DNA from: Desulfomonilia bacterium
Lineage (GTDB): Bacteria; Desulfobacterota; Desulfomonilia; UBA1062
Assembly: GCA_050014195.1 (NCBI GenBank)
Contig: JBEKDT010000012.1
Location: forward strand, 94,181-158,180
Direction: 5' to 3'
DNA length: 64,000 nucleotides
The position numbers and the translations under genes are program-made. Shown piece by piece: positions 2,421-47,876 of this stretch. How positions within the stretch are numbered: the stretch's first letter is position 1; each line of letters starts with the position of its first letter. The notes beneath the pieces are model-generated. The model was not told where the DNA came from. It did no database searches and saw only the letters and a list, made by a program, of their open reading frames with translations.

Positions 2421-2580
2421 TGGGAGAGAGAGGACTGGAGATTCATGGCTTTTATGTATCATACTCCCTGTAGATCATCATGCATAAAAACTTTTTTATT
2501 CTCTCATATGCATAGATCTCATTTGAATATCTGGAATAATCTGGACCAATAAAAATCAGATAGTTATCGCAGTAATCTCT
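2421..2580 (+). repeat. ~160-bp direct repeat (pair of 10339-10496) containing boundary element copy A (core 2511-2577)
   Basis: Near-identical to 10339-10496 by eye; ends in aaatcagatagttatcgcagtaatc. Confidence 0.9.
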
Positions 2581-2602
2581 ACTCTTGAGTTTGCTTAGGA
2601 TG

Positions 2603-2636
2603 AAAAAAAGCAGGGCCTGAAATTGACCCTGCTTTT
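2603..2636 (-). terminator. Intrinsic terminator of PEP-CTERM gene 2658-3179
   Basis: AAAAAAAGCAGGG-N-CCCTGCTTTT hairpin with T-tract on minus strand. Confidence 0.75.
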
Positions 2637-2657
2637 AAAATCTTGAGAACCGTAATG

Positions 2658-3179
2658 TTACTTTTTTATCTTCTTTCTAAACCCTGCTAAACCTAACAGA
2701 CCAGAGCCCAGAAGGAGTATGGTGGTCGGTTCAGGGACAGGGGCGCCTTTATCATATTTGAGACATAAAGTGGATGTATCAAGATAGAAAGGAGTTAGAC
2801 AATTTTTATATGTCATACATACATCAAGGTTTTCTCCAAGATCCCATGTGGCAAATGTACCAGTAATATCGAAAGTTTTATCTCCCCAAAAGAATAATTT
2901 ATTGTTGCTTATGGTACCCGTGAAATCATCATTTACATACACCTTATCTTTACTTGGATTTATAAAGAATCCACAGAGTGTAAGTTTTGCTTTGGTTACC
3001 ACGTCAGGCGGAACCTCAAGCCCTAGGGGTGTGGGCTGTACCCATGATAGTGTTCCGGAACCAAACAGGTGAGCTTTGTCTAAATCTACTGTACTGGTAA
3101 AAACAAGAGCATTCCCTACACTACTTACAGCGAACAATAAAACAAATACGCTCAAACAAGAGATAATAACCTTTTTCAT
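2658..3179 (-). CDS. PEP-CTERM sorting domain surface protein
   Basis: Signal peptide; C-terminal VPEPTTILLLGSGLLGLAGFRKKIKK. Confidence 0.92.
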   Translation of the reverse strand: MKKVIISCLSVFVLLFAVSSVGNALVFTSTVDLDKAHLFGSGTLSWVQPTPLGLEVPPDVVTKAKLTLCGFFINPSKDKVYVNDDFTGTISNNKLFFWGDKTFDITGTFATWDLGENLDVCMTYKNCLTPFYLDTSTLCLKYDKGAPVPEPTTILLLGSGLLGLAGFRKKIKK

Positions 3180-3218
3180 AATAAACCTCCCAGTTGTTGT
3201 TATTGTTAGTTTAAATAA

Positions 3219-3234
3219 TGCAATAATCAGGCCA
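3219..3234 (-). promoter_or_regulatory. Sigma54 (-24/-12) promoter
   Basis: TGGCCT-GATTA-TTGCA about 40 nt upstream of the PEP-CTERM start. Confidence 0.7.
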
Positions 3235-3296
3235 ATAGAATAATTGTTTTAATTTTAATATAATAGAACGATAATTAAGAGATGAACTTGCTCTAT

Positions 3297-3413
3297 TGTA
3301 AATTTTATCGACACTAAAATTTATGGTTCTTATGCGAAAAATCCGATAATCACTTTGATTCCATAGCAGTACAAATCATTGCACAATAAATAGTACTGTA
3401 AATTAATTCGACA
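3297..3413. promoter_or_regulatory. Two PEP-CTERM-box-like enhancer sites (3297-3313, 3397-3413)
   Basis: TGTAAA-N6-CGACA twice, 100 bp apart, upstream of the sigma54 site; resembles the PrsR-type activator box of PEP-CTERM genes. Confidence 0.7.
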
Positions 3414-3506
3414 GTGATCTTTTATTCTGACAGAGGCAGATTACTATCTTGCTGGTTGAATAAAAGCCCTCCGCCATCCTGGCTGGCAATTGAAAGTGTA
3501 GATAAC

Positions 3507-3607
3507 GTGCCAATCGTTACGCTCTGCCGTGATATGACAATTTCGAAGATCTGTTCTCAAGATCATCAGTTTTATTCATCTTAAACTGAGATGATATCTT
3601 AGTGATC
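3507..3607 (+). repeat. Boundary element copy B
   Basis: gtgcca...aagatcatcagtttt-attcatctt-aaactgagatgatatcttagtgatc. Confidence 0.75.
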
Positions 3608-3681
3608 AACAACATTGATTGAGGTGAATTATCATGGTAGATGCGGTTATCCATTAAAACACGTTAAGGTAATCATTAAAG

Positions 3682-4137
3682 ATGAATAAGCTGAAAACTG
3701 TTCTCGTTTATTTTATAGTCTTATCCTTGGGAATTGTATGTGGAGGTTATTTGTTCTCCCAATCACAACCCAGATCATTTTTATCAATATCGAATTGTCA
3801 ACATTGTTTAAGTGAGAATGATCTTGTCGGGCTGCTTGCCTCAGTCGGTATACAAAAATTTTCTAAGCTTATCCCTTCTGTTGTATTCGAAACGGACAAA
3901 ACAATCGCCATTAAGATCCCGGATACACAGGTTCGTTATCACTATGTCATTATTCCTAAGAAAGACATCAAGAATATCGGTGAACTTACTGATGCCGATG
4001 CTCAATATTTAATTGATACATTTTTTGTAGCAAGAAAGATCATTGAGGATAAGAACTTATTCAAATATACCCTTCATACAAATGGACCTGGTATTCAAGA
4101 CGTTACATATTTACATTTTCATTTGATAGCCGAGTGA
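3682..4137 (+). CDS. HIT-domain protein with N-terminal membrane anchor/signal
   Basis: HYVIIPKK and C-terminal NGPGIQDVTYLHFHL (HIT-like, first His replaced by Tyr). Confidence 0.8.
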   Translation: MNKLKTVLVYFIVLSLGIVCGGYLFSQSQPRSFLSISNCQHCLSENDLVGLLASVGIQKFSKLIPSVVFETDKTIAIKIPDTQVRYHYVIIPKKDIKNIGELTDADAQYLIDTFFVARKIIEDKNLFKYTLHTNGPGIQDVTYLHFHLIAE

Positions 4138-4274
4138 CACCGCATCTACCACCACTGTCCCGATCCGCTTCTGATATAAATCGCTTCGCCCTTAATCCTT
4201 CAACCATTTCCTATTTACTCGATGGGAAAACGCAGGAGTCTGCGCTTTTGTGGAGATGCAAGGACGTGTGTCAT

Positions 4275-4329
4275 ACCTGGCATCTCAAATAACCAGTCTA
4301 TATACGTCCTGAGCAATAGTCCATTCATG
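4275..4329 (-). pseudogene. Tiny relic resembling Lon protease internal motif
   Basis: HEWTIA/RTYIDWLFEMP (frameshifted) resembles Lon EYTVxRTYLDWLxELPW. Confidence 0.35.
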
Positions 4330-4584
4330 AACTCACCCACTTGGGATAGAGGGAGCAAATCAAAACTCTTCCTGCTCGAATAAGGCGATCTTATCTTGAG
4401 ATTGGTCCTAGGTATCAATGCCCATCGTGATATTATCGCATGGCATGGCATCAAATGTGGGTTTCAAGATGATGTGGGAAGGAATGAGAGATCCTGGATA
4501 AGATATTATGGTTGAGTAGATGGAGGTGGGATTGATGAGTTATTGCAGGGATCTTTATTTTTCATAGGGTATAAAACGATAGTC

Positions 4585-4980
4585 TCAAAACGGTGCACAC
4601 AAATAGGACATGAAATTATTCAAGCCTTTATCATCTTTTCGTGTGAAGATAATTGCCATCCCTGAATCAGTCTTCCGCACCACTTGCCCGATGACCCAGA
4701 TTACCTTGCCGAACGGCTCTACATTAAGGCTAGCACTTACAAAACCATCAACATTAGGGCAATGCCCTGTCTCAACGAACATTCCACCCTTGCTGATGTT
4801 ACAGACTCTTCCCATCCTGTTCGCATAATCATTGTCACGATAAGAGAACATCATGTTTACCCTTACTCTCTTATAAGCCCGCTGATTATCCGTAGTCTGA
4901 GATATTTTTGCATGAGAAATAATTGACGTAGGTTCTTTCAAAACAGTATCCTCCACTTGCAAGCAAAACAGTATAACCAT
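4585..4980 (-). CDS. Single-domain PilZ (c-di-GMP receptor) protein
   Basis: QRAYKR (RxxxR) and NISKGG (D/NxSxxG) motifs; true start may be a TTG near 4941. Confidence 0.85.
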   Translation of the reverse strand: MVILFCLQVEDTVLKEPTSIISHAKISQTTDNQRAYKRVRVNMMFSYRDNDYANRMGRVCNISKGGMFVETGHCPNVDGFVSASLNVEPFGKVIWVIGQVVRKTDSGMAIIFTRKDDKGLNNFMSYLCAPF

Positions 4981-4989
4981 AAGTTAACC

Positions 4990-5088
4990 TGCCATGTCAT
5001 TTGAATACATAATTAACATCATCTATAGATAATATTTCAAGATCATCGGTTTCTGGGCCTTACAAAACCAGAAAGTTATCGCAGAATC
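4990..5088 (+). repeat. Boundary element copy C
   Basis: tgcca...tatagataatatttcaagatcatcggtttc-tgggccttaca-aaaccagaaagttatcgcagaatc. Confidence 0.85.
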
Positions 5089-5124
5089 ATCGCGTTAACA
5101 GTTAGACAGGAATAGATGAAAAAC

Positions 5125-5157
5125 AAAAAAAGGCAGGGCCTTTCAATGACCCTGCTT
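5125..5157 (-). terminator. Intrinsic terminator of PEP-CTERM gene 5182-5799
   Basis: AAAAAAAGGCAGGG-N-CCCTGCTT, paralogous to 2603-2636. Confidence 0.75.
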
Positions 5158-5181
5158 CTGATATCCAGTCAATATGTTGTA

Positions 5182-5799
5182 TTACTTTTTCAGCTTTTTC
5201 CTGAACCCTGCTAGCCCAATAAGACCTGATCCAAGAAGAATCATTGTACATGGTTCAGGAACAGGGGGAGTTTTTACAATTAGATCTTGAGCTTTAAAGG
5301 GAAGTGTTGTGGGTAGGGCCATTTCAGCAATCTCATACCCTGTACCAGTATAATCATATCCTTTAAAATCTTCCATATATTTTGTGAAGTCAGCTTGGAC
5401 TGTTGGATTACTGATATTAGTAATCTGTCCATACATAATATCCCATATTGCCAACTGCAATGCTGGAGTATCTGCTTTATTACCCTCTTTGTTAATCAAC
5501 CATGCTGATTCATAACCAAGATAGTCATGGTTTAGGTTGTTAGTAAGGGATACATTATAGTATGTATAAGGAACGTATGTTACATCATACAGGTCAACAC
5601 AATATCCTGTTGTAGGCTGCCCATTAATGTTGAGATGAAACTGTCCAGCATACTCACCTGTAGGATTGCCGTTCAAATCAAAATTAACGTAGGTATAGTC
5701 ATTGATGCTACCAGTAATATTGATTGTATTTGCTCCTACTGATGCTGTGAAGCCAAGCACGATAAGTAGTAATGCAACTGTCATGGAAAATTTTTTCAT
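5182..5799 (-). CDS. PEP-CTERM surface protein with thioester-domain-like motifs
   Basis: Signal peptide; GYCVD, LQLAIW, AQDLI motifs; VPEPCTMILLGSGLIGLAGFRKKLKK tail. Confidence 0.9.
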   Translation of the reverse strand: MKKFSMTVALLLIVLGFTASVGANTINITGSINDYTYVNFDLNGNPTGEYAGQFHLNINGQPTTGYCVDLYDVTYVPYTYYNVSLTNNLNHDYLGYESAWLINKEGNKADTPALQLAIWDIMYGQITNISNPTVQADFTKYMEDFKGYDYTGTGYEIAEMALPTTLPFKAQDLIVKTPPVPEPCTMILLGSGLIGLAGFRKKLKK

Positions 5800-5836
5800 A
5801 TTGACCTCGTAGATGTTGTTTTATTAGCGATTATTA

Positions 5837-5852
5837 TCCAATATTTATGCCA
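5837..5852 (-). promoter_or_regulatory. Sigma54-like promoter
   Basis: TGGCAT-AAATA-TTGGA (one mismatch at -12), same distance from the start as at 3219. Confidence 0.5.
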
Positions 5853-6078
5853 ATTAACGTATGTCTTTGATATAAATAATTAATTACTTCAGACAGTATA
5901 AAATAGGGGTATTGGCGTAATGGATAAAATAGAAATATATTTCCATAAAGATAGTAATTATTTACATCAATAAAATGCGTAGAACGGCCTATCGATTTCT
6001 ATGATCATAGAACCAGATAACTGTAAATCATACCATCTATAACTGATTGATAAGGTATAATTAATAGATTACGTTATT

Positions 6079-6820
6079 TGTCATGTGTCACACCCAGAGT
6101 TGGTTTGATCTTTTCATAGATCTTATTTCAAAATCATCGGTTTTGTGTGTCACGAATGCCGAGAGGCAATGCTGTGTAGGAGATGAGGGGAGGCCCCTCG
6201 GAGCCGGTTTACAGGAGCAGGCTTCAAACCGCCCTAAGCTGCGATGGTAAAGAGCCATGGTGGTGAGCGTTAGGGAAAAGGCGCAAGGAATGCGTCAGGT
6301 AGTATCGGAGAGACGAGCGAAAGCGAACCAATCGATGAGGCATCGAAAATGATCACAGATGATGTCAAAACCAGGGTCCAAAACTAACTCTGGGAACAGC
6401 TCAGAGGAAACCTGTTTACTGTCTGAGCGGCATCCGGTGTAGAGATGGTGTGAATCCGATACGGGCTTTTACACGGAACGTGAGAACCTGTCGTCTGGAT
6501 GAGAAGGGAGAAATCCAAGGAGAGGCCCCCCGAGGATGAGAGTACCGATGCCAGGCACAGGGGCGGGACAGCTCGTAGTAGTGAAGAAGCTCCTGTAATG
6601 GGAGTGGAGCGAAGGGGCTGTGTTGTTCAGGAGGTATTTATTGATCAACCAGAAATGGGAGGAATCAATGAGTATTGCCAAGCCAAGCTATACGATTGGC
6701 TGAACAATGGGAGCCGGATGAGCTGAGAGGTTCACGTCCGGTTCTACGAGCAGCTGGGGGTGAAATTCCCCTGGCTGACTTTCCCAGGAATTTCAAAACC
6801 AGAAAGTTATCATAGGAATC
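6079..6820 (+). repeat. Boundary element copy D, split by the intron (left 6079-6144, right 6785-6820)
   Basis: Rejoined sequence catagatcttatttcaaaatcatcggtttt|caggaatttcaaaaccagaaagttatcataggaatc matches copies C, E and H. Confidence 0.85.
6145..6784 (+). mobile_element. ORF-less group II intron (IIB, bacterial class D-like), about 640 nt
   Basis: 5' GTGTG; domain V GAGCCGGATGAGCTGAGAGGTTCACGTCCGGTTC; domain VI with bulged A; domain IV keeps only RBS + ATGAGTATTGCCAAGCCA (MSIAKP) and a few codons, so the RT ORF is deleted. Confidence 0.92.
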
Positions 6821-6907
6821 TTCAGTCCCATCTTCCAATAAGATATTTCATTTCATAAAAAGGAAGTGACTCATATACACTTTGTCTAATCTATTGAACT
6901 AGCCCAA

Positions 6908-7072
6908 TTATGATGTTATCTTTTTATTTAACTCCCCAAGCACGATTAGGTTGACACCTAAAAAAAATATATTTAATGGACCAGGTTCGAAAGTTGGATT
7001 TTGATAGGTGTATCCATTCAGTAAAATGAGTAGAAAAAGAAGACAAACTATTGGGAATATCCCTTTCCACAT
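6908..7072 (-). CDS. 54-aa mini-protein: hydrophobic N-terminus plus degenerate PEP-CTERM-like tail (not in ORF track)
   Basis: MWKGIFPIVCLLFLLILLNGYTYQNPTFEPGPLNIFFLGVNLIVLGELNKKITS; strong ACAGGAGG RBS 5 nt upstream. Confidence 0.65.
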   Translation of the reverse strand: MWKGIFPIVCLLFLLILLNGYTYQNPTFEPGPLNIFFLGVNLIVLGELNKKITS

Positions 7073-7207
7073 AAGAACCTCCTGTACTCATAAGCTTAGA
7101 TAAGCCCCTTTTAGATAAAATCTCCATAGTGAAAGTCAATAGGCTTAGATGACAACATTTGGTTAAAGTCATTATAAACTTATAATCAAGGGTATGTATA
7201 CGTTGCG

Positions 7208-7310
7208 GTGCCAGGGTGACATGCTTAGATATGGAGGCCTTGCTGCATAGGTTTCAACTTAAGATCATCAGTTTCAGGCATTATAATACCGAGAAGAAAT
7301 CGCAATAATC
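7208..7310 (+). repeat. Boundary element copy E
   Basis: gtgcca...ccttgctgcataggtttcaacttaagatcatcagtttcaggcattataataccgagaagaaatcgcaataatc. Confidence 0.85.
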
Positions 7311-7467
7311 TTTACCCTAGAGAAAATAAGCTAAATCCCTTTTGATATGATTATAAATCATCGAACTATCAATGGCCGTTAGATCTTGCCACTGTAAGTC
7401 TTCTTAAATTTATCAAAATTAAAGGAGCATATACATCTCTCCTATAGCTCACCTATGATTCATTTTC

Positions 7468-7671
7468 TCACATATGCAATTTCAGCTCGATAATATATGA
7501 ACCTTCTCCCGTTGTGTATTTCTCAACTCCTACACCGACATCACGCATTGTAAAGCCAGATGTTTTAGCCGTATTATCGATGTCCTTAATGCATTGAGTA
7601 AGCAATTTAAATATTTGTATTTTAGTACGCTCAACATTTAATTTGTTGGCCTGTAGAGTTTTTTCCTCCAT
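7468..7671 (-). CDS. Small hypothetical protein (67 aa)
   Basis: MEEKTLQ... start with AGGAGA RBS; own sigma54 promoter upstream. Confidence 0.6.
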   Translation of the reverse strand: MEEKTLQANKLNVERTKIQIFKLLTQCIKDIDNTAKTSGFTMRDVGVGVEKYTTGEGSYIIELKLHM

Positions 7672-7773
7672 GACCGTTCTCCTTTTTCCTCGCATCAGGA
7701 GGATCATATGATGATATGTCTAAGATGAGTTCTAGTTGAAAGTGAATTTTGATAATATATCTAAGCTAGTGTA

Positions 7774-7789
7774 GGCAAATTATGTGCCA
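7774..7789 (-). promoter_or_regulatory. Sigma54 promoter
   Basis: TGGCAC-ATAAT-TTGCC, near consensus. Confidence 0.75.
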
Positions 7790-7840
7790 TCACATAACAG
7801 TTTGATATATTTATTTTAATTTTATCGTCCTTCCGAAGAA

Positions 7841-7936
7841 TGCAAAGTAATTCGACAGTTCATTATGCTGTATACTTTATATAACATTGAAATTATTAAT
7901 ATTTATATAGGAGCATAACTGTTAAATATTTCGACA
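7841..7936. promoter_or_regulatory. Two PEP-CTERM-box-like sites (7841-7857, 7920-7936)
   Basis: tgcaaagtaattcgaca and tgttaaatatttcgaca, same 17-nt motif as 3297/3397. Confidence 0.65.
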
Positions 7937-7969
7937 GTTCAATTTGATATTTAACACCAATGAACTGAA

Positions 7970-8044
7970 GATTTCGTGCCATGGATCACGCTTAGCCTAT
8001 AGTATATATCTCTTGAGTTAATATCTGGTTGACCATAACTGAAG
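7970..8044 (+). repeat. 75-bp repeat X (pair of 12415-12489)
   Basis: gatttcgtgccatg...atatctcttgagttaatatctggttgaccataactgaag aligns with 12415-12489 at equal length. Confidence 0.7.
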
Positions 8045-8071
8045 ATGTCGTGACTCTATATGTGGATTGAT

Positions 8072-8158
8072 AAAAACCGGACCGCACAAGGGAGCGATCC
8101 GGCTTAAGAGGAGGTCAAAAGTCCGTTCGTCAAGGATGACGAGGAGAGTTTGACTGAC
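8072..8158 (-). ncRNA. Candidate small RNA (about 87 nt) with CU-rich loops and intrinsic terminator
   Basis: sigma70-like TTGCAT (8186-8191) with TATAAA/TAAACT; stems GUCAAA/UUUGAC and UCGUCA-UCCU-UGACGA; terminator GCCGGAUCGC/GCGGUCCGGU-UUUU pairs fully only on the minus strand. Confidence 0.55.
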
Positions 8159-8288
8159 AATAGTTTATAAGATCGACTTTGGAAAATGCAACCTTGACGA
8201 TTCTATGCGGTCTTCTTGGGCTTCTCATGGGTGGTGTGGAAAGAACCAAAGAATCCTTCAATTCGTAAATCCCTTTTTCAACAGACTC

Positions 8289-8355
8289 TGCCAGTATCGG
8301 CACTCTTACATGATATGACCATTTACATATATCTCATCCGGAGATCATCGGTTTT
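8289..8355 (+). repeat. Boundary element copy F (left half, followed by intron copy 2)
   Basis: tgcca...catatatctcatccggagatcatcggtttt|GTATG. Confidence 0.8.
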
Positions 8356-8884
8356 GTATGTCACGAATGCCGAGAGGCAATGCTGTGTAGGAGATGAGGG
8401 GAGGCCCCTCGGAGCCGGTTTACAGGAGCAGGCTTCAAACCGCCCTAAGCTGCGATGGTAAAGAGCCATGGTGGTGAGCGTTAGGGAAAAGGCGCAAGGA
8501 ATGCGTCAGGTAGTATCGGAGAGACGAGCGAAAGCGAACCAATCGATGAGGCATCGAAAATGATCACAGATGATGTCAAAACCAGGGTCCAAAACTAACT
8601 CTGGGAACAGCTCAGAGGAAACCTGTTTACTGTCTGAGCGGCATCCGGTGTAGAGATGGTGTGAATCCGATACGGGCTTTTACACGGAACGTGAGAACCT
8701 GTCGTCTGGATGAGAAGGGAGAAATCCAAGGAGAGGCCCCCCGAGGATGAGAGTACCGATGCCAGGCACAGGGGCGGGACAGCTCGTAGTAGAGAAGAAG
8801 CTCCTGTAATGGTAATGGGAGTGGAGCGAAGGGGCTGTGTTGTTCAGGAGGTATTTATTGATCAACCAGAAATGGGAGGAATCA
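8356..8884 (+). mobile_element. Second, 3'-truncated copy of the group II intron
   Basis: Almost identical to 6145-6667; 5' GTATG variant, gtaatg duplication; identity stops just before the IEP ATG, no domains V/VI. Confidence 0.92.
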
Positions 8885-8958
8885 GGGATCTACAATCCAC
8901 CCTTAGGAGAAGATGTCTCAAGTTGTTTATTAAAAGCAGGGTCTCATTATGCAGCCCC

Positions 8959-9084
8959 TGTCATGCAGCCCCTTGCCCGGAACAATCTGATGATTATTAT
9001 ATAAGGTTCCAATAAAAAGGACTCCATGGAATTCCTCATGTGGTCCTCTACGGGAAAGGAGATAACTTTATGGGAAAATGGGAT
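8959..9084 (+). repeat. ~125-bp promoter/leader-like repeat (inverted pair of 1741-1866)
   Basis: TTGCCC-N16-TATTAT, leader, AAAGGAGA RBS and a short ATG ORF. Confidence 0.9.
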
Positions 9085-9248
9085 TCGTCATAGGAGTTTT
9101 TGTAATGATAGTTCTAGTGCTTGCGATTGTCTATTTTTAATGCATAGAACACAAGATTTTATGCAAGATACCATCCAAAAAGGAGAAATCGATGGAAAAC
9201 ATTTCTCAGGGAATGAGACAGATTTTGGATGAACAAATAGTATCTATA

Positions 9249-10115
9249 ATGAAGTCCAAGCTCTTGATTCTATTCGTAGTAGCGGCATTGGCCTCGCTTC
9301 TTTACCCACCCTTGGTATCGGCCACGCCAATACTGGGTTCGGCGCAGAGCTTCGCGGTTCTGGGTCACGAAACGGTGACCAATGGCCATAGCGCCCCGAA
9401 CCCAACCACTCAAATATACGGGAATTTGGGTGTGACGCCAAAAACTTCGGTCACTGGCTTTTATCCTGACGGGACCGTGAGCGGAGGAACGATACACATA
9501 AATGATGGGGTCGCGCAACTTGCTCTGGCGGATGCAACGACTGCGTACAATACGCTAGCAGGCTTGCCGTTCGTTTACAACTATACTGGTTTTGTCCTGG
9601 GTTCAGCGGGATACACCACGCTCACGCCGGGTGTCTATCATTTTGACTCATCGGCTCAGTTGACAGGAGCACTCACTCTCGATTTCGAAAACGAGTCCAA
9701 TAAGGACTTCATTTTCCAGATAGGGAGTACGCTCACGACCGCAAGCAGCTCTTCTGTTAACGTCATCAATGGGAATTCAACTGACGGTGTGTATTGGCAG
9801 GTCGTAAGTTCTGCGACTCTGGGTTCAGACACTACATTCGAAGGAAATATTCTTGCTCTTGCAAGTGTTAGCCTTGATCCTCGCGCACAGATTCTGTGCG
9901 GGAGAGCCATCGCGCTAACTGGGGCAGTGTCGTTGATAGACAATCTTATCTCCAACAATAACACCGCCCAAAACTTCGGTAGCGGCCGCTCCGACTTCGG
10001 CAGCTACGGCTTCAGTGGCAGCGCGGCGCCGGTCCCGGAACCCTCAACCATGCTCCTCCTTGGCTCCGGGCTGCTTGGATTGGTGTCATTGGGGAAAAGG
10101 TTCAAGAAAGTTTGA
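9249..10115 (+). CDS. DUF3494 (ice-binding-like beta-solenoid) protein with PEP-CTERM tail
   Basis: LGSAQSFAVLG, TLTPGVYHFDSSAQLTG, FIFQIGSTLTTAS, VYWQVVSSATLG, FEGNILA, GRAIALTGAVSL; VPEPSTMLLLGSGL tail; ORF track start is 9192. Confidence 0.92.
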   Translation: MKSKLLILFVVAALASLLYPPLVSATPILGSAQSFAVLGHETVTNGHSAPNPTTQIYGNLGVTPKTSVTGFYPDGTVSGGTIHINDGVAQLALADATTAYNTLAGLPFVYNYTGFVLGSAGYTTLTPGVYHFDSSAQLTGALTLDFENESNKDFIFQIGSTLTTASSSSVNVINGNSTDGVYWQVVSSATLGSDTTFEGNILALASVSLDPRAQILCGRAIALTGAVSLIDNLISNNNTAQNFGSGRSDFGSYGFSGSAAPVPEPSTMLLLGSGLLGLVSLGKRFKKV

Positions 10116-10163
10116 TCAGGCGTAACAGACGCATTCTTCAGGGGGCAGGTCAGTAAGATTGAG

Positions 10164-10257
10164 ATATATGAGGTTGACCCGCTAACCTGCCCCACGTGTT
10201 ACGGCACGATGCGATACTGGCCTTCGTCGAGGAAGAGCCGGTAATCCGAAAATACTG
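10164..10257 (+). pseudogene. Frameshifted C-terminal relic of an IS91-family-like transposase
   Basis: IYEVDPLTCPTCYGTMR/ILAFVEEEPVIRK/IL resembles the C-terminal zinc-ribbon of IS91-like transposases. Confidence 0.65.
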
Positions 10258-10338
10258 CGTACAAAGAATCAGAAATTGGTGACGTGTTCACATTATTCCC
10301 CTGCAAGGATGAAAAATAGAAACGTCCCCTTTTCTCTT

Positions 10339-10496
10339 TGGGGAGAGGGGACTGGAGATTCATGGCTTTTATGTCTCATACTCCCTGCAGATCATCATGT
10401 ATAAAAACTATTCATTCTCTCATATGCACAGATCTCATTTGAATATCTGGAATAATCTGGACCTATAAAAATCAGATAGTTATCGCAGTAATCTCT
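10339..10496 (+). repeat. ~160-bp direct repeat (pair of 2421-2580) containing boundary element copy G (10427-10493)
   Basis: Near-identical to 2421-2580. Confidence 0.9.
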
Positions 10497-10738
10497 GCTA
10501 TCGGATAATTAAAACCATCAAAACAATATATTATAACACGATCTCTTCAATACGTTGTCATACTTTCTAAACTCTAAAGTTTTAAGAGTAAAAATCCGTT
10601 TAATACCATAGTGTAATTTCCTTATGTTGTTTCATGATTATTAGGTCACGAGAAGAAGTTCGATCTTAGAAGTTTTACAAGCAAATTAGTTCTCAGGAAT
10701 GCTTTTATTACAGGCACCAGAACTGGAGGAAGGCGAAC

Positions 10739-12853: not shown

Positions 12854-14194
12854 TTATACCGCGATATAGCTCTTGATGAAGCCTTCCAGATCGGATGCCT
12901 CTTCAGGCCCTACCATCACGCGCCAGCCAGGGAGGCTGTCTTCCAGCTCCCCGCTTATCTGGGAAACATAGCCCGGTATGACGATCCGGCGCGTGTTGAT
13001 CTGTGCTTCCAGGTTCATCTCCTTGATGAATTTGGATATTGTGCCGGCGGAGAACTTCCCGGCAGCCCAGGCGGTAAGCACGCTCATGCCCTCGCATTCC
13101 GGTACGACCAGCCAGGCACTGATGCCGCTGTTCTCGATTTCACCTGAGACAATGAAGTAAGTGAGTGAAAAATTTGTGGTGACGAAAACAGGCGAATCCG
13201 GGGTCGGTTCGCCGATTGCATACACTTTTGGCTCAACCTGGATGGGCTTCTGCGGGTCAGTATATATGTTGAGCCGGAGTGTCAGGAGCGTTGCGAGTTG
13301 TGAGGCATGAAAACCGGGCAGGACGCAGATACTCCCGTATTTAGTGATCTCCGTGATGGCAGCAGTAGTGTCATCCATCAGGGTGCCGGTATCGATGAAG
13401 TGCACAAAGGGATATCCAAGCGGTTTGAAATTGTCTTTGATGGCTGAGCGTCTGGCTATCGTATTCGTCTGCAACTGTTCTGAAAGGGAATGGGTCTCCA
13501 GTTGGAGCAAAATGTTGTGAAAACCGTTTTCACGGTGTCTTGATACCAGCTCGATCAAAGAATCCATGTCAGGTGCTGCAAACGCAATGGCATGTTCCTG
13601 TTCCTGTGCAACAGGCACAAGGATGGCTGCTGTCTTTTCATCCGGGGCGCAGAGAACGCTGCGGGACCCTTGAATATGAGATGTCGCTCTAACAATCGCA
13701 TCTGCACTTTTGCCCCGCAGGATCAGAGGCCTGCCGGTTACCTGCCAGGCCTTGGCTGCTAGCTGTATGAATGCTGCTGCATCTAAGGACAGCTGAGTAA
13801 TCGCAACCATGCCGACGGTGAGGGACTCTCCCACACGCTCGAGCACATAATTCTTGATGGAGGTAAGGGAGGCATCGATCCTTGCCGGCTCATCGGTGTC
13901 ATTGATGTTGATGGCCATGATGGTCGGGTTCAGAAAGGTCTTGTCATGCCGGTACAGCACGGTCTCGCCTCCGGCAATGAGCCTTTTGTCAGGGCCCAGC
14001 ACAACGGACTTGACCGGAGGTTCGTTGGCGAGCCCCAGGACCTGCTTAGCCTCCTCAGATGCATACGGGCACTCGGAGATATCAGCCTTTTTGGCAGCCA
14101 GCTTCATGGCAAAGGCAAGGCAGGTGTTGGACCCGCATTCCTTGCAGTTGGTCTGCGGCAGGAGTTTCTGTATCTGGAGTCCGCTCAGCGCCAT
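12854..14194 (-). CDS. acsC: Corrinoid Fe-S protein large subunit (ACS gamma)
   Basis: MALSGLQIQKLLPQTNCKECGSNTCLAFA; IYTDPQKP; VTTNFSLTYF; VLTAWAAGKF. Confidence 0.95.
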   Translation of the reverse strand: MALSGLQIQKLLPQTNCKECGSNTCLAFAMKLAAKKADISECPYASEEAKQVLGLANEPPVKSVVLGPDKRLIAGGETVLYRHDKTFLNPTIMAININDTDEPARIDASLTSIKNYVLERVGESLTVGMVAITQLSLDAAAFIQLAAKAWQVTGRPLILRGKSADAIVRATSHIQGSRSVLCAPDEKTAAILVPVAQEQEHAIAFAAPDMDSLIELVSRHRENGFHNILLQLETHSLSEQLQTNTIARRSAIKDNFKPLGYPFVHFIDTGTLMDDTTAAITEITKYGSICVLPGFHASQLATLLTLRLNIYTDPQKPIQVEPKVYAIGEPTPDSPVFVTTNFSLTYFIVSGEIENSGISAWLVVPECEGMSVLTAWAAGKFSAGTISKFIKEMNLEAQINTRRIVIPGYVSQISGELEDSLPGWRVMVGPEEASDLEGFIKSYIAV

Positions 14195-14199
14195 GATGA

Positions 14200-17100
14200 C
14201 TACCTCCCATCCATCAGAGAAGCAATGGTCTTTTCCAGTGCCATGGCTGCCTGCGGATGATACATGATAACAATCGATGCCCCGGCAAAAAGGAGCGAGG
14301 TTGCGGTTGAGAGCTCCCACAGTGCTGCACGGTCCTTAAGATCCCCCCAGGCCGGGAAGTCTGATTCCGGGGCGCGCAGCTCCTTGATCTTTGCACACTC
14401 CTGTCCCGGGGAGACGATCATGGGTGCAGCCAGCATCTTATCGCCGGCAAGGCTGGTGAGGCGGATCCGTTCCATGACCGAGTAGGTATATTCAATGCCA
14501 TATCCGACGGCACTCGTGACCGGATCGATAACAATCCTCTCGGTTGGGATATTCATATTGGCAAGCAGGATATTCAGTTGCTTGGCAATATTCACATCAA
14601 TGGGGCTCTGGGCAACGATTGTATGCCCATAGGCCAGGGCCGCACCAGCAATGGTGCGGTAGTTCTCCTGCTCCACCCAGCTCAGGAGGAGATTTTCGCC
14701 GGCACACCCACGTGCAACCTCTTTCATCACCTCGTTGATCTTGTCAAAATGGCTGTGGCCGGTGATGATCAGCGGGACATCGACTGCTGCAAGAACCGAT
14801 TTTACCAGTGCCAGGGCTTCTTCAGGGGAACTATTCCCTTTTTCCGGATGCGTCCCTTCAAGCCTTACGCTGATGAGGTCGGCCCCGTATTTATCCACAC
14901 ATACCTTGGCCATTTCTGCAGGATCGTTAAGGAGATCACCCCATATCGAACGCAGTGCCTCAGGATACTTCGGGCTGACCTTGTCAAAGACCTCAAGGGC
15001 CACCAGAGGCCGGTTTTTCATGGCTCCTTCGAAGTAAAGGAAGGGCATGGCAGTATCTCCGCCGATGGTATAGGTGCGTCCCCGCGTGCCTCCCCCAGCA
15101 TTTGTGGCGCCAAGGGTGACTTCGTAAACACCCTGCTCGCAGGTCTCTTTCCTGATGGGCAAAGACTTTATGGATGCTATACGCTCCCTTGCAGTGGGCC
15201 TGGTTACCTTCCTTTCCGGCTTATCATCCATGGGCTTATCGAGATTCACCGGTGCAGTTACCTGGTCTTGCAACTTGGTTTCTGGGAACCGGTTGCTCAA
15301 GACATTGATGATATCGCCCACGATATCCTGGGCAAAGGTCTGTTTGATTTCAGATTTGATCTGTTCGATGAGCTCTGCTTTTAATTGCGCAATCTGGTCT
15401 TTTGAATATGATGTATCAGGCTGCTGCGAAGGCGAGACAGACACTGACTCTGCAACTACCTTTTCCCGAGCTGTTTCTCGGGGCGTACTTTCAACGGATG
15501 CAGTATCATGCCTTGCAAAGTCTGCGATGTCACCCATCTCGATGGCAGGGTGCTTCACCCTTTCCAGGTAGGCCCTGATATCGTGAGGTTCAATGGCAAC
15601 GGATTCGTCCGGGATCTTCTCAAGCAGATCCGGCTCCCCCTGTTCTGCAAAGCGCCTTTTCAGGTCTTCGCCCAGCATCTTCTTCAATCCCTTTGTCATC
15701 CAGATCAAGCGCTTGTGGCCCCCTTCGGCAAAGAGGAATTTGCGCGAGGTGAGGAATACCTTTCCGCAGCCCATGAAGCCCGGGGTCTGCTGGCCACCGC
15801 CAACGCTGCCGGCAAGTGTGGAAAAGGTCATGCCCGCCGGGGTGTCACCGGTGTATTCGCGGTTTACAGCCATGATCCCGTTGCATTCCGGGACATAGGC
15901 GCATATGACCTCGAAACATCCGCAGCTGGTCATGGGCCGGTCCATGATGGAGTAGGTGCAAACGGAGGGAATTGTCTTGTGTGATGAGAGATACACATAG
16001 TCATCCACGCCCTTCCACACACCCTTGACCGGGTCTGTGCACTCGCCTTTTTTCACGGGCTGGTTGGGGCCCGTCTCATCGATCTCATAGGCTGCCCGTG
16101 CATCGAGCCAGTTGTACGCCCCGCACAGGCCTAAACGTTCGGGTGTGACCACACAAACATGATTGGGTGCAAAGGACTGGCACAGCAGGCATGAATAGAA
16201 GATATCCACGTTCTCATCGGTCATGGATTCGAGTCGGCGGTTGCGTTCAATATAGGTGTTCCGTGCAATTTCCTGCCGTTTTTCAACCTCATCTTTTTCG
16301 GTGATGAGGGTCACCTTTACCTTGTCGACAATGGCAGGATAGTTGGACAGGAACTTTGCATGGATGATCTCTCCGTAGTGCCTGAGGCGCAGTCCCTTTT
16401 CAAAACCGCTTGTGGAGATGCGGGTCCAGACGATATCACGCTGGCCCATGTGCCAGATGCCCTCGGCGCTGTTAATGAGATGGTGGATCTGCCGCTCTAA
16501 AATGGCCTCAAAGTCGGTCTGCATCTTCCTGCCTGCCACCTCGACCCAGATGGCAAGCGGCAGCGCCGAACCCTGAGGGACCTGGTCCACATCGGGTCCG
16601 ATGATTTCGATGGCGCCGTCTTCGATCTCATCCATGCCCACCATGGTCACGAACTCGAAGGCCGGGGTGATATTACCCCCGAACTCCACCTGCGTATCCT
16701 GCTTGCGGATGCGCTCGCCCTCGAACGCGGGTCCATAAGGAACCGGGATGGGGACCTTGGTTATCTTGACCTTGCAGCCCCTGACCTCAAGGGCCTTATC
16801 GACCATGCTCTCATACGGCACGGAAGAAACGACATGTTCATAGGTGCATATGCCTGTGGGCAGGATCTGCGGGATCGCGGTGTCGGCAATGACCGGAAAG
16901 CCGTAATTCAAGGCCCCGGCTGCTGCGGCATACTTCTCGGCATCCACTTCGCCGAAGGCGAGCACAAAGGCGAAGATGCGATCCTTGTTGTATTTCAGGT
17001 TGGCATGGAAATCACCAGGCTTCACATTCCCGAAGGACAGGGCGGAGCGGTTGGCAAAGCCCAGGGCATAGATGAGGGCTGACACATCCTTGCCGAACGG

Positions 17101-17700
17101 CACAAGCCTGGTCTCCCAGCCCATCTGGACCCCTTCCTCGGCAAGCTGCTCGGCAAACTGCTTCCCGTGGGTGGCGCCGGCCATGAACACATAGATATTC
17201 TTTTCCTGCAGTTCGCGGGCAATCTTGACTGCGATCTCGTTGGTGGGGGCTGCACCGGTGATGGCGGCAAATCCGGGGGCTGTGCCGTCCACGAATTCGA
17301 TGCCCCGCTCGCGCATGATGACGTCGCTGGCAGCGCCTAGCCATATGCCGTCCACCGGATCCGGGCCGATAAGATACTTGCATGCCTCGATGATTTCACA
17401 TGCAAATAATGTCGCCACGCCTGCATCCAGGGTATTGCCGAGATAGGGCAGCCAGACCTTTTCAGACGGCAGTGCACTCAGCAGGCCTCTGGCCCGAGTA
17501 AGCACAAGACGCAGATCGGCGAGTGTTTCAGCCTTCCGGCCGGTAAAGGAATAGATTATTGGGAGATGATAGGCCGTCTCAGGGAAGGCTACTGCGCACT
17601 GTAGGCCCTTTAGCTTGATGGCCTCATCGAGCTTTGCCTCGGCGCGCGCAACCCAATCAATAGCTCCCTGGATGGCGCTCGAGCAGATGAGCTTAGACAC
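14200..17700 (-). CDS. acsB: Fusion of acetyl-CoA synthase (AcsB) and corrinoid Fe-S protein small subunit (AcsD)
   Basis: N-terminal ~720 aa with A-cluster motifs SCLLCQSFAPNHVC, GLCG, SCGCFE; linker; C-terminal CdhD-like domain (EVTLGAT..IGGDTAMPF..GYGIEYTYSVMERIRL). Confidence 0.93.
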   Translation of the reverse strand: MSKLICSSAIQGAIDWVARAEAKLDEAIKLKGLQCAVAFPETAYHLPIIYSFTGRKAETLADLRLVLTRARGLLSALPSEKVWLPYLGNTLDAGVATLFACEIIEACKYLIGPDPVDGIWLGAASDVIMRERGIEFVDGTAPGFAAITGAAPTNEIAVKIARELQEKNIYVFMAGATHGKQFAEQLAEEGVQMGWETRLVPFGKDVSALIYALGFANRSALSFGNVKPGDFHANLKYNKDRIFAFVLAFGEVDAEKYAAAAGALNYGFPVIADTAIPQILPTGICTYEHVVSSVPYESMVDKALEVRGCKVKITKVPIPVPYGPAFEGERIRKQDTQVEFGGNITPAFEFVTMVGMDEIEDGAIEIIGPDVDQVPQGSALPLAIWVEVAGRKMQTDFEAILERQIHHLINSAEGIWHMGQRDIVWTRISTSGFEKGLRLRHYGEIIHAKFLSNYPAIVDKVKVTLITEKDEVEKRQEIARNTYIERNRRLESMTDENVDIFYSCLLCQSFAPNHVCVVTPERLGLCGAYNWLDARAAYEIDETGPNQPVKKGECTDPVKGVWKGVDDYVYLSSHKTIPSVCTYSIMDRPMTSCGCFEVICAYVPECNGIMAVNREYTGDTPAGMTFSTLAGSVGGGQQTPGFMGCGKVFLTSRKFLFAEGGHKRLIWMTKGLKKMLGEDLKRRFAEQGEPDLLEKIPDESVAIEPHDIRAYLERVKHPAIEMGDIADFARHDTASVESTPRETAREKVVAESVSVSPSQQPDTSYSKDQIAQLKAELIEQIKSEIKQTFAQDIVGDIINVLSNRFPETKLQDQVTAPVNLDKPMDDKPERKVTRPTARERIASIKSLPIRKETCEQGVYEVTLGATNAGGGTRGRTYTIGGDTAMPFLYFEGAMKNRPLVALEVFDKVSPKYPEALRSIWGDLLNDPAEMAKVCVDKYGADLISVRLEGTHPEKGNSSPEEALALVKSVLAAVDVPLIITGHSHFDKINEVMKEVARGCAGENLLLSWVEQENYRTIAGAALAYGHTIVAQSPIDVNIAKQLNILLANMNIPTERIVIDPVTSAVGYGIEYTYSVMERIRLTSLAGDKMLAAPMIVSPGQECAKIKELRAPESDFPAWGDLKDRAALWELSTATSLLFAGASIVIMYHPQAAMALEKTIASLMDGR

Positions 17701-47773: not shown

Positions 47774-47876
47774 GATTCCTGCGATTTTATCTCGGTTTTA
47801 AGTTGTCTGAAAACTGAAAATCTGGGTTTGAAACCTATGAAGCAAGGTACTCTATATTAGAGCGTGTCAAATGGTG
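47774..47876 (-). repeat. Boundary element copy H (opposite orientation)
   Basis: Reverse complement ccttgcttcataggtttcaaacccagattttcagttttcagacaacttaaaaccgagataaaatcgcaggaatc closely matches copy E. Confidence 0.85.

Follow-up and report, generated by a model that had tools for sequence, protein, structure and literature searches.

A 64,000-nucleotide stretch of the genome of a Desulfomonilia bacterium (assembly GCA_050014195.1, contig JBEKDT010000012.1, positions 94,181 to 158,180), here called the window, carries a compact group II intron without a reverse transcriptase (RT) gene, inserted in one copy of a short intergenic repeat. The host genome (G000) is a 29-contig draft assembly, in which the window is C12:94181-158180 and a window position equals the C12 coordinate minus 94180. 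The repeat is about 75 nucleotides (nt) long, is often clustered and has no coding capacity. The stretch from 2502 to 10489 of the window contains seven copies, two intron-bearing copies among them, and three more lie just upstream of the window. The features of the locus are collected in Table 1.

Table 1. Intron copies, guide sequences and repeat copies. Positions are those of the window unless a contig is named. EBS, exon-binding site; IBS, intron-binding site.
Feature	Position	Strand	Evidence and remarks
Empty repeat copy	2502..2573	+	nhmmer
Empty repeat copy	3539..3598	+	nhmmer
Empty repeat copy	5021..5085	+	nhmmer
5' exon, left repeat part	6110..6144	+	Profile alignment; IBS2 AATCAT 6132-6137, linker C6138, IBS1 GGTTTT 6139-6144
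Complete RT-less group II intron, IIB, class D-like	6145..6784	+	640 nt; RF01999 and RF00029; starts GUGUG, ends ...CUUUCC
EBS2 AUGAUC	6349..6354	+	Unpaired in local and consensus folds; predicted to pair with GATCAT
EBS1 AAAACU	6380..6385	+	Wholly inside the 9-nt loop of a 7-base-pair hairpin; predicted to pair with IBS1 (A/G)GTTTT
EBS3 G	6442	+	In a 3-nt unpaired stretch, AGA 6441-6443 (consensus fold); predicted to pair with C6785
Domain IV RT-gene remnant	6657..6703	+	Shine-Dalgarno GGGAGG 6657-6662, then a 12-codon frame 6668-6703, MSIAKPSYTIG*
Domains V and VI	6709..6784	+	RF00029, 48.5 bits (cut-off 40); bulged branch-point A at 6778
3' exon, right repeat part	6785..6816	+	Profile alignment; IBS3 = C6785
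Empty repeat copy	7236..7304	+	nhmmer
Left half-repeat, 5' exon of second intron copy	8312..8355	+	Repeat profile and sequence; ends GATCATCGGTTTT
Second intron copy, 3'-truncated	8356..8884	+	RF01999 at 8396-8511; BLAST 98.5% over positions 1-523
Empty repeat copy	10419..10489	+	nhmmer
Empty repeat copy	47778..47852	-	nhmmer
Third intron copy, complete	C24:2481-1841		BLAST, 98.4% identical to 6145-6784

The ribozyme was recognised through two Rfam families, RF01999 (group-II-D1D4-2; cut-off 36 bits), which matches domain I at 6185-6300 with 115.3 bits, and RF00029, which covers domains V and VI. Domain V folds locally as a hairpin with a 2-nt bulge, and the bulged A of domain VI lies seven nt before the 3' end. 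The domain V/VI fold is unusually stable (z = -4.6), with none of 200 shuffled sequences equally stable. Both marks of a group II ribozyme are present, namely the domain V/VI features and a domain I whose EBS are complementary to the exons. The 3' boundary at 6784 was fixed by aligning the intron-less junction to the repeat, and excision of 6145-6784 in silico leaves a sequence that matches the repeat profile from end to end (positions 11-77, E 2.4e-14). An initial annotation of the stretch, made from the letters alone, had delimited the intron at the same positions and had stated that it splits the repeat exactly between ATCATCGGTTTT and CAG, with removal restoring a normal element. The Rfam matches and the restored repeat agree with both statements.

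No RT gene lies between domains III and V. What domain IV holds instead is a Shine-Dalgarno sequence and a short frame whose start, MSIAKP, resembles the start MSQAKPF of the 414-amino-acid (aa) RT of a full-length relative (locus L007) in a genome of the same class (G051). Three sister genomes with intron matches (G002, G003 and G007) carry a 71%-identical sister family, here family B, while introns of the host type form family A. Family B occurs both full-length and RT-deleted. Its full-length RT in G002 is 417 aa long, starts MDKAKSF and ends ...KPSAGQ, and its RT-less members read MDKAKSFGIIPATGQ in an alignment read by eye, that is, MDKAKSF followed by the last codons. The initial annotation had described a lost RT open reading frame (ORF) that left a ribosome-binding site and MSIAKP fused to the last codons. 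This description is right on comparison with the RT starts and ends of full-length relatives, and family B has undergone the same type of deletion. The remnant, together with the two forms of family B, marks the host intron as derived from an RT-encoding intron through RT deletion.

A consensus fold was computed from eight RT-less introns, two of family A and six of family B. Because 61 of its 211 pairs keep pairing through compensatory changes on both sides, the ribozyme fold has been selected since the split of the two families, though essentially two lineages are compared. Within the host genome, the two complete copies differ at 10 of 641 aligned positions and keep every ribozyme element.

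The repeat that hosts the intron is numerous. A profile iterated with nhmmer from the window copies yields 79 matches (E<1e-3) on 20 of the 29 contigs, and three intron-bearing copies are present in the genome. Two of the 79 matches are the half-repeats beside the second and third intron copies, and the repeat split by the first copy falls under the threshold until the intron is removed. Its core motif (18 nt, up to 2 mismatches, both strands summed) was counted across 61 genomes with the reversed motif as a control. Counts are 54 in G003, 44 in the host genome, 26 in G002, 16 in G007 and 15 in G011, against 0-8 in each of the remaining 56 genomes; the reversed control gives 0-2. Among the same 61, only the host genome, G002, G003 and G007 have long intron matches, and five others have short or distant ones. 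These are four of the five repeat-rich genomes; as they are close kin, this overlap is a description and not a statistical test.

A BLAST search with the 640-nt intron against the 29 contigs finds it in three places. All three copies are preceded by (A/G)ATCATCGGTTTT, and both complete ones are then followed by CAGG. A 98%-identical copy in the sister genome G003 sits at the same repeat position, and the insertion point is identical in all four copies, after profile position 45 on the + strand. Tabulating the flanks of every genomic copy places each of them in the repeat and none of the three in unrelated sequence. The introns are 96.6-98.4% identical among themselves, whereas the 60-nt flanks on each side are only 59-66% identical. 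This difference argues for separate insertion events, in which introns would have entered repeat copies that had already diverged, and against co-duplication. The second copy breaks off just before the remnant's ATG, is without domains V and VI and the right half-repeat, and is followed by unrelated sequence. Incomplete reverse transcription is expected to truncate the 5' end, opposite to the 3' truncation observed here. G002 and G003 also hold intron copies that have lost their 3' ends.

Contigs from four peat metagenome runs were also aligned to the locus. They cross both intron-exon junctions of 6145-6784 in all four runs, and further contigs enter the intron from differing upstream sequences that share only 6133-6144. 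When the metagenome contigs were scanned with exact 23-mers for a full-length sibling, only two loci, both of the same organism, were returned. A 25-mer scan of the species genomes returned three loci, which are presumably the known G002 and G003 copies. Metagenome depth is greater over the intron than over its flanks, but depth is no copy number. A search for RNA runs that contain the stretch gave none.

The identical insertion point is matched by the intron's predicted guides. The layout places IBS2 at -13 to -8, a single linker base next, and IBS1 at -6 to -1. EBS1 is the exact complement of AGTTTT, the majority form in the repeat, and pairs with the local GGTTTT through one G-U pair. EBS2 meets one mismatch in the local exon, AATCAT as opposed to GATCAT. 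The initial annotation had proposed both hexamers and their complements. Folding places them at EBS positions, EBS1 within a hairpin loop and EBS2 unpaired; EBS1 also agrees with co-variation, EBS2 is re-tuned together with the exons of two relatives, and EBS3 is newly placed at 6442. The further claim that the hexamers read the best-conserved motifs of the repeat holds in part. GTTTT and GATC are among the conserved columns, but CAG, AAAACC and ATCG are equally conserved, and the fifth base of IBS2 is T instead of the pairing A in most copies.

Relatives at other sites provide the co-variation. In a 93%-identical copy on G002:C9, EBS1 CAAACC faces the exon GGTTTG and EBS2 GAUCAU faces ATGATC; in a 90%-identical copy on G002:C4, the pairs are UUUUGUU with AACAAAA and AAAUCU with AGATTT. 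EBS1 of family B, GUUAUC or UUUAUC, is exactly complementary to GATAAC or GATAAA in three of six copies and pairs through one G-U wobble in two more (L014 and L018), the sixth copy (L022) being outside this comparison. A Sinorhizobium meliloti relative combines EBS1 AGUCGU with the exon ACGACT.

For EBS3, the reference is RmInt1, represented by the S. meliloti copy L072, which has all of the published RmInt1 IBS bases in its 5' exon. G6442 aligns with RmInt1 G329, the EBS3 given in PMC3123198. This column holds G with a 3'-exon C in both aligned host copies, as in RmInt1, whose G-C pair is published, and A with a 3'-exon T in the four aligned family B copies and the S. meliloti relative. All six family B 3' exons start with T, and the column is U in the G002:C9 copy, whose 3' exon is lost. 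Because the G329 column tracks the first 3'-exon base, G6442 is assigned as the EBS3 of the host intron. Overall, five different intron/exon combinations co-vary and so confirm the predicted guide-exon pairing. The initial annotation proposed that the guides read a conserved stretch of a repeat present in many intergenic copies, and this is supported by the co-variation and by three occupied sites among about 80 copies in the genome.

The same lineage also reaches other parts of the repeat. Family B introns lie on the - strand near profile position ~67, with four of six sites matching the profile at E<=6e-5 and the other two on the 5'-exon side only (E ~0.75), and the G002:C9 intron lies on the - strand near position ~25. 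Because exons mapped onto the profile fall at 45 (+), ~67 (-) and ~25 (-), related introns with differing guides occupy at least three positions, on both strands, of one repeat family.

The presence of EBS2 and of a single EBS3 base that tracks the first 3'-exon base places the intron in group IIB. The base that precedes EBS1 (C in family A, U in family B) cannot pair with C or T at +1. The features of IIC-attC introns are not seen: EBS2 is present, the domain I family is that of RmInt1, and the target has no attC cores and does not occur beside integrases. The data support an RT-less group II intron of IIB and not IIC type. The G051 RT (414 aa, without an endonuclease-length tail) shares 69% identity with a 419-aa ltrA encoded on pSymA of S. 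meliloti. Five more 419-aa ltrA copies from that record reach 54-55%, and one of their introns carries the canonical RmInt1 exon. RF01999 also matches the S. meliloti intron, with 123.1 bits; papers that mention this Rfam family by name do not tie it to an intron class. Classes D and E are described as sister clades in PMC3552965. These similarities, drawn from S. meliloti references, support an endonuclease-less, class D-like lineage. The IIB and class D-like assignment of the initial annotation agrees with EBS2, the single-base EBS3 and the 414-417-aa RTs of relatives, at 54-55% identity to RmInt1-type genes. The closest RT-encoding relatives, at L007 (G051:C274) and at L047 (S. meliloti CP140947.1:142525-146763), each interrupt another RT gene precisely at its YADD codons and have an EBS1 complementary to ACGAC(T), suggesting that the lineage also homes into other retroelements.

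Sequence comparison establishes the site specificity of the intron, the complementarity and co-variation of its guides with the exons, the deletion of the RT gene and the conservation of the ribozyme fold. The reading favoured here, with a probability of roughly 0.8, is that of a non-autonomous, class D-like IIB intron, RT-deleted, that spread by base-pairing-guided retrohoming into a dispersed repeat with the RT of a sibling. An internal deletion removed the RT gene, of which the ribosome-binding site, roughly the first six codons and a few of the last ones are left. The intron RNA would recognise a 14-base site through EBS2 with GATCAT, EBS1 with (A/G)GTTTT and the EBS3 G with C at +1. By analogy with RmInt1, diverged repeat copies would then have been entered by reverse splicing followed by reverse transcription. 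Because the host intron is without an RT, we infer that each insertion needed the RT/maturase of a full-length sibling, that is, mobilisation in trans. The lineage would have specialised on the repeat family, with sister sublineages changing their guides and moving to opposite-strand positions, while the copies in the host genome are probably stranded now, no such RT gene remaining in the assembly.

Potential helpers were found outside the host genome. A related RT gene in the same genome is present for family B in G002, which holds two copies encoding the 417-aa RT and four complete RT-less copies; the two may be one element assembled at two contig ends. One full-length family B intron (L059, G002:C18:311-4537) departs from the family's domain VI after domain V, from ~2790, and a second, unrelated RT gene lies further on the same contig; this may be an intron nested in an intron. 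In the peat metagenome, a contig of run X23 matches the intron up to 6664 and extends beyond it by a median of 87 letters, of which the 30 shown read by eye ...VDKAKPFSI, like the RT starts of relatives. This contig hints at a full-length family A sibling in the habitat.

Several observations weigh against the retrohoming reading. A search for a full-length, RT-encoding sibling in the host genome found none in the draft, where a class D-like RT query gives no matches at E<=1e-10. The only PF00078 match is a stand-alone RT that is not accompanied by an Rfam intron match, and PF08388 finds one 59-codon maturase remnant of another type on C17 (55.8 bits). A multi-copy full-length intron could be unassembled in such a draft. 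A 14-mer target is recognisable in 74 of the 79 repeat matches; with G-U pairs allowed, seven empty copies fit all three guides (6+6 pairs and C at +1) and are nevertheless unoccupied. Ten more empty copies have one IBS2 mismatch. Other points concern the guides and the ribozyme. EBS2 pairing of family B is imperfect in several copies in the alignment read by eye, and the relatives are few and closely related, with co-variation resting on about five independent guide changes. The 5' exon of G002:C4 has no significant match to the repeat profile, though by eye it resembles the reverse strand of the left repeat part. A stem of ~29 nt near the 5' end of domain I is absent in family A and present in family B, G051 and RmInt1. 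Group II introns have the consensus ends 5' GUGYG and 3' AY; the host intron's GUGUG fits, but it ends in CC instead of the usual AY, and family B ends in AC.

The stand-alone RT is a 436-aa ORF (1114-2424, minus) at L002 (G000:C10:106486-110151), beside an ORF with a P-loop motif, and is of defence type by eye only. The maturase remnant lies at ~1480-1650 of L001 (G000:C17:19546-22689), where ~1840-1880 looks by eye like the 3' half of a domain V. Together they would represent the degenerate remains of a group II intron of a different type; the nearest repeat copy noted is ~1.1 kb away, and Rfam has no match at the locus.

The unoccupied perfect targets, the RT not found and the truncated copy together suggest that the intron family is not moving now. 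The initial annotation had named empty window copies as targets, yet these are imperfect (a mismatch at -1 and/or no C at +1). Such a standstill would be expected if the copies are fossils, that is, if the RT-encoding master was lost and three copies that neither move nor splice efficiently persist in non-coding repeats, a reading given somewhat less than even odds. Beyond the three observations above, it draws on the truncated copies in G002 and G003, on the absence from the four metagenome runs of a contig joining 6144 to 6785, although contigs cannot show absence, and on the position of the intron, which is antisense to both neighbouring ORFs with no excess of promoter-like sites (three found at 5750-6950 versus 3.5 expected). 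Against it stand the two complete copies with every ribozyme element kept, the metagenome contig that runs from domain IV into an RT-like frame, and the ability of a draft assembly to miss multi-copy full-length introns. The fossil reading concerns the present state only and is compatible with an origin by retrohoming.

A more far-reaching reading, considered unlikely, is that the repeat is an active, often single-stranded recombination or transposition site like attC sites or repetitive extragenic palindromes (REPs), bounding small gene units, and that the intron lineage is its dedicated parasite, re-tuning EBS1, EBS2 and EBS3 to three or more positions on the two strands and persisting RT-less even where the genome has no intron-encoded protein. 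If true, the IIC-attC association would gain its first IIB counterpart guided by base pairing, and this would be the second bacterial case, after C.te.I1, of ORF-less introns without a cognate RT.

Less probable still is the proposal that the repeat is an unrecognised attC-like cassette boundary that folds as a single strand, with the intron as the IIB counterpart of IIC-attC introns, drawn to a site that is often single-stranded. The arrangement of the window is suggestive: about eight co-oriented copies follow one another at intervals of 1-2 kb that hold one or two small genes each, the inverted segments GAT...ATC and GTTTT...AAAAC are conserved with extra bases on one arm, and introns are inserted in both strands. 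In addition, the integron integrase family is found in nine of the 14 genomes of the genus at E<=1e-40, eight of them over the NCBIfam cut-off. The host genome, however, has no integron integrase over that cut-off (best 82.7 bits versus 265), the repeat profile has no match in 12 integrase-bearing or adjacent loci scanned, and the consensus of 45 repeat copies is without conserved AAC/GTT cores. The sites beside the integrases of relatives are classical GC-rich attCs, quite unlike the repeat. Two crude scans of the host genome for AAC...GTT inverted repeats found no cluster, and a stricter one found one classical attC-like site, C1:155774-155836 (GCCCAAC...GTTGGGC), which also looks different. 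Copies lie on 20 contigs without a consistent orientation to genes (27 convergent, 17 divergent, 17 and 14 tandem, with crude ORFs of >=90 aa). The outer and inner stems of the repeat are invariant, hence no test of structure, and its middle stem is without co-variation, with Watson-Crick bases in 19 of 45 copies at the variable pair. A repeat lies within 5 kb of four of the 14 tyrosine recombinase genes, where a rough estimate of chance gives ~2.4. On these sequence features, the repeat is no canonical integron attC. What the initial annotation drew between the intron and IIC-attC introns is therefore only an analogy, and the intron itself is not IIC.

The least likely reading is spread at the DNA level, by transposition, gene conversion or segmental duplication of an intron-bearing repeat, for although the host element is multi-copy, recombination between copies is conceivable and two of the three introns lie 2.2 kb apart in one array, the flanks are far more diverged than the introns, similarity begins ~34 nt upstream of the intron and no further, and guide-changed sublineages at matching new sites are unpredicted by DNA copying.

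The repeat is not linked to Y1 transposases either. The two Y1 transposase genes, at C1:92082 and C5:220358, are not flanked by it (best match E 0.0098 over 41 positions), and a link to REPs and their associated tyrosine transposases (RAYTs) was rejected. Head-to-head inverted pairs of copies, ~20-105 nt apart, occur at C12:92788-92932, C1:45467-45611, C17:2302-2447, C2:93243-93388 and C7:65927-66153. In these pairs the minus-strand partner covers the hairpin half only, which recalls REP doublets. Because two ~160-nt stretches of the window (2423-2583 and 10340-10499), each a repeat copy with ~80 nt upstream, are 92-93% alike, some copies seem to share a longer unit. The attC-like site on C1 lies 3 kb from an RsgA-family gene. 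Between the window's repeat copies lie genes for three PEP-CTERM proteins at 2658-3179 (-), 5182-5799 (-) and 9192-10115 (+), one with an ice-binding-like domain, as well as HIT and PilZ genes. Directly after the repeat-rich stretch, 12854-17700 (-) holds carbon monoxide dehydrogenase/acetyl-CoA synthase (ACS) genes, including a CdhD-like gene and one for a 1166-aa protein in which ACS beta and CdhD domains are fused.

This uncharacterised repeat family of peat Desulfomonilia deserves a study of its own. Its dozens of copies form a ready set of occupied, empty-compatible and empty-mismatched sites on which target rules could be tested. The intron in turn offers a compact, structurally intact 640-nt class D-like case with three guide contacts readable from natural co-variation. 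Diversification of guides within one small repeat, on both strands, may represent an escape from target saturation in harmless DNA.

Known systems supply close parallels, the closest being the TeI3 introns and RmInt1/RmInt2. In TeI3 of Thermosynechococcus elongatus, ORF-less derivatives are served in trans by the RTs of siblings (Mohr, Ghanem and Lambowitz 2010, PMC2882425). As in the host intron, these derivatives lost the RT by deletion from an RT-encoding IIB intron, and their families are set by diverged EBS1, EBS2 and EBS3. Most TeI3 insertions are at sites that match the guides well and lie in DNA that is not essential, an IS200 element and other introns among them (PMC2882425). In contrast, the host intron is class D-like and its target is a short non-coding dispersed repeat, not an insertion sequence or an intron ORF. 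Within that one repeat its sublineages aim at several positions on both strands. A helper RT was not found in its genome, and the case is known from sequence alone.

RmInt1 and RmInt2 are endonuclease-less introns of class D (IIB3) that home into ISRm2011-2 and both ends of ISRm17, with RmInt2 using both inverted repeats of the latter (PMC5894124). The host intron resembles them in its endonuclease-less RT relatives (54-55%), its Rfam domain I family and its multi-copy genomic target. RmInt1 reads IBS2 at -13 to -9, a linker at -8 and IBS1 at -7 to -1 (PMC3123198, PMC4075523). The host layout likewise combines IBS2, a one-base linker, IBS1 and a G-C EBS3/IBS3 pair over -13 to +1, with EBS3 at a homologous position. 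RmInt1 and RmInt2 carry an RT and target insertion sequences, whereas the host intron is naturally RT-less, 640 nt long and has one domain I stem fewer. An engineered, RT-deleted RmInt1 with separately supplied protein serves gene targeting (PMC5894124, PMC3123198, PMC4075523).

Introns of cassette arrays are similar in habit. IIC introns have no EBS2 and rely on a DNA stem-loop and a short EBS1 (PMC4424553). IIC-attC introns such as S.ma.I2 share with the host intron a repeated, hairpin-capable intergenic site and an orientation often antisense to neighbours (PMC4424553, PMC3001079); they differ in that the host intron would use 6+6+1 base pairs and a target that is not a canonical attC. Integron arrays of halophiles, and clusters of attC sites lacking integron integrases (CALINs), hold endonuclease-less IIB introns of CL1 and class E (Sonbol and Siam 2021, PMC7923331). 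Shared features are a setting of small genes with repeats at their boundaries and the frequency of truncated copies. The halophile introns have unconserved exons, with no sequence-specific repeat reading shown in that report, whereas the host intron reuses the same 14-base site, co-varying with its guides.

ORF-less introns are described in PMC4424553 as rare in bacteria and nearly always found beside a related RT, with C.te.I1 of Clostridium tetani as the sole exception. C.te.I1 is likewise ORF-less in a genome without an intron-encoded protein gene, but it is single, lies in a gene and is alternatively spliced (PMC4424553), while the host intron has three copies in non-coding repeats and a negative RT result that is based on a draft. 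A word search limited to the open-access literature found no report of group II introns homing into REPs, miniature inverted-repeat transposable elements or other intergenic-type repeats.

In summary, every element of the proposed mechanism is already known, including deletion derivatives, sibling RTs, guide divergence and class D introns in multi-copy elements, and the known picture of how such introns work is unchanged by this case. The host intron differs from the known cases in its short non-coding repeat target, in sublineages re-tuned within one repeat on both strands, and in having no apparent RT.

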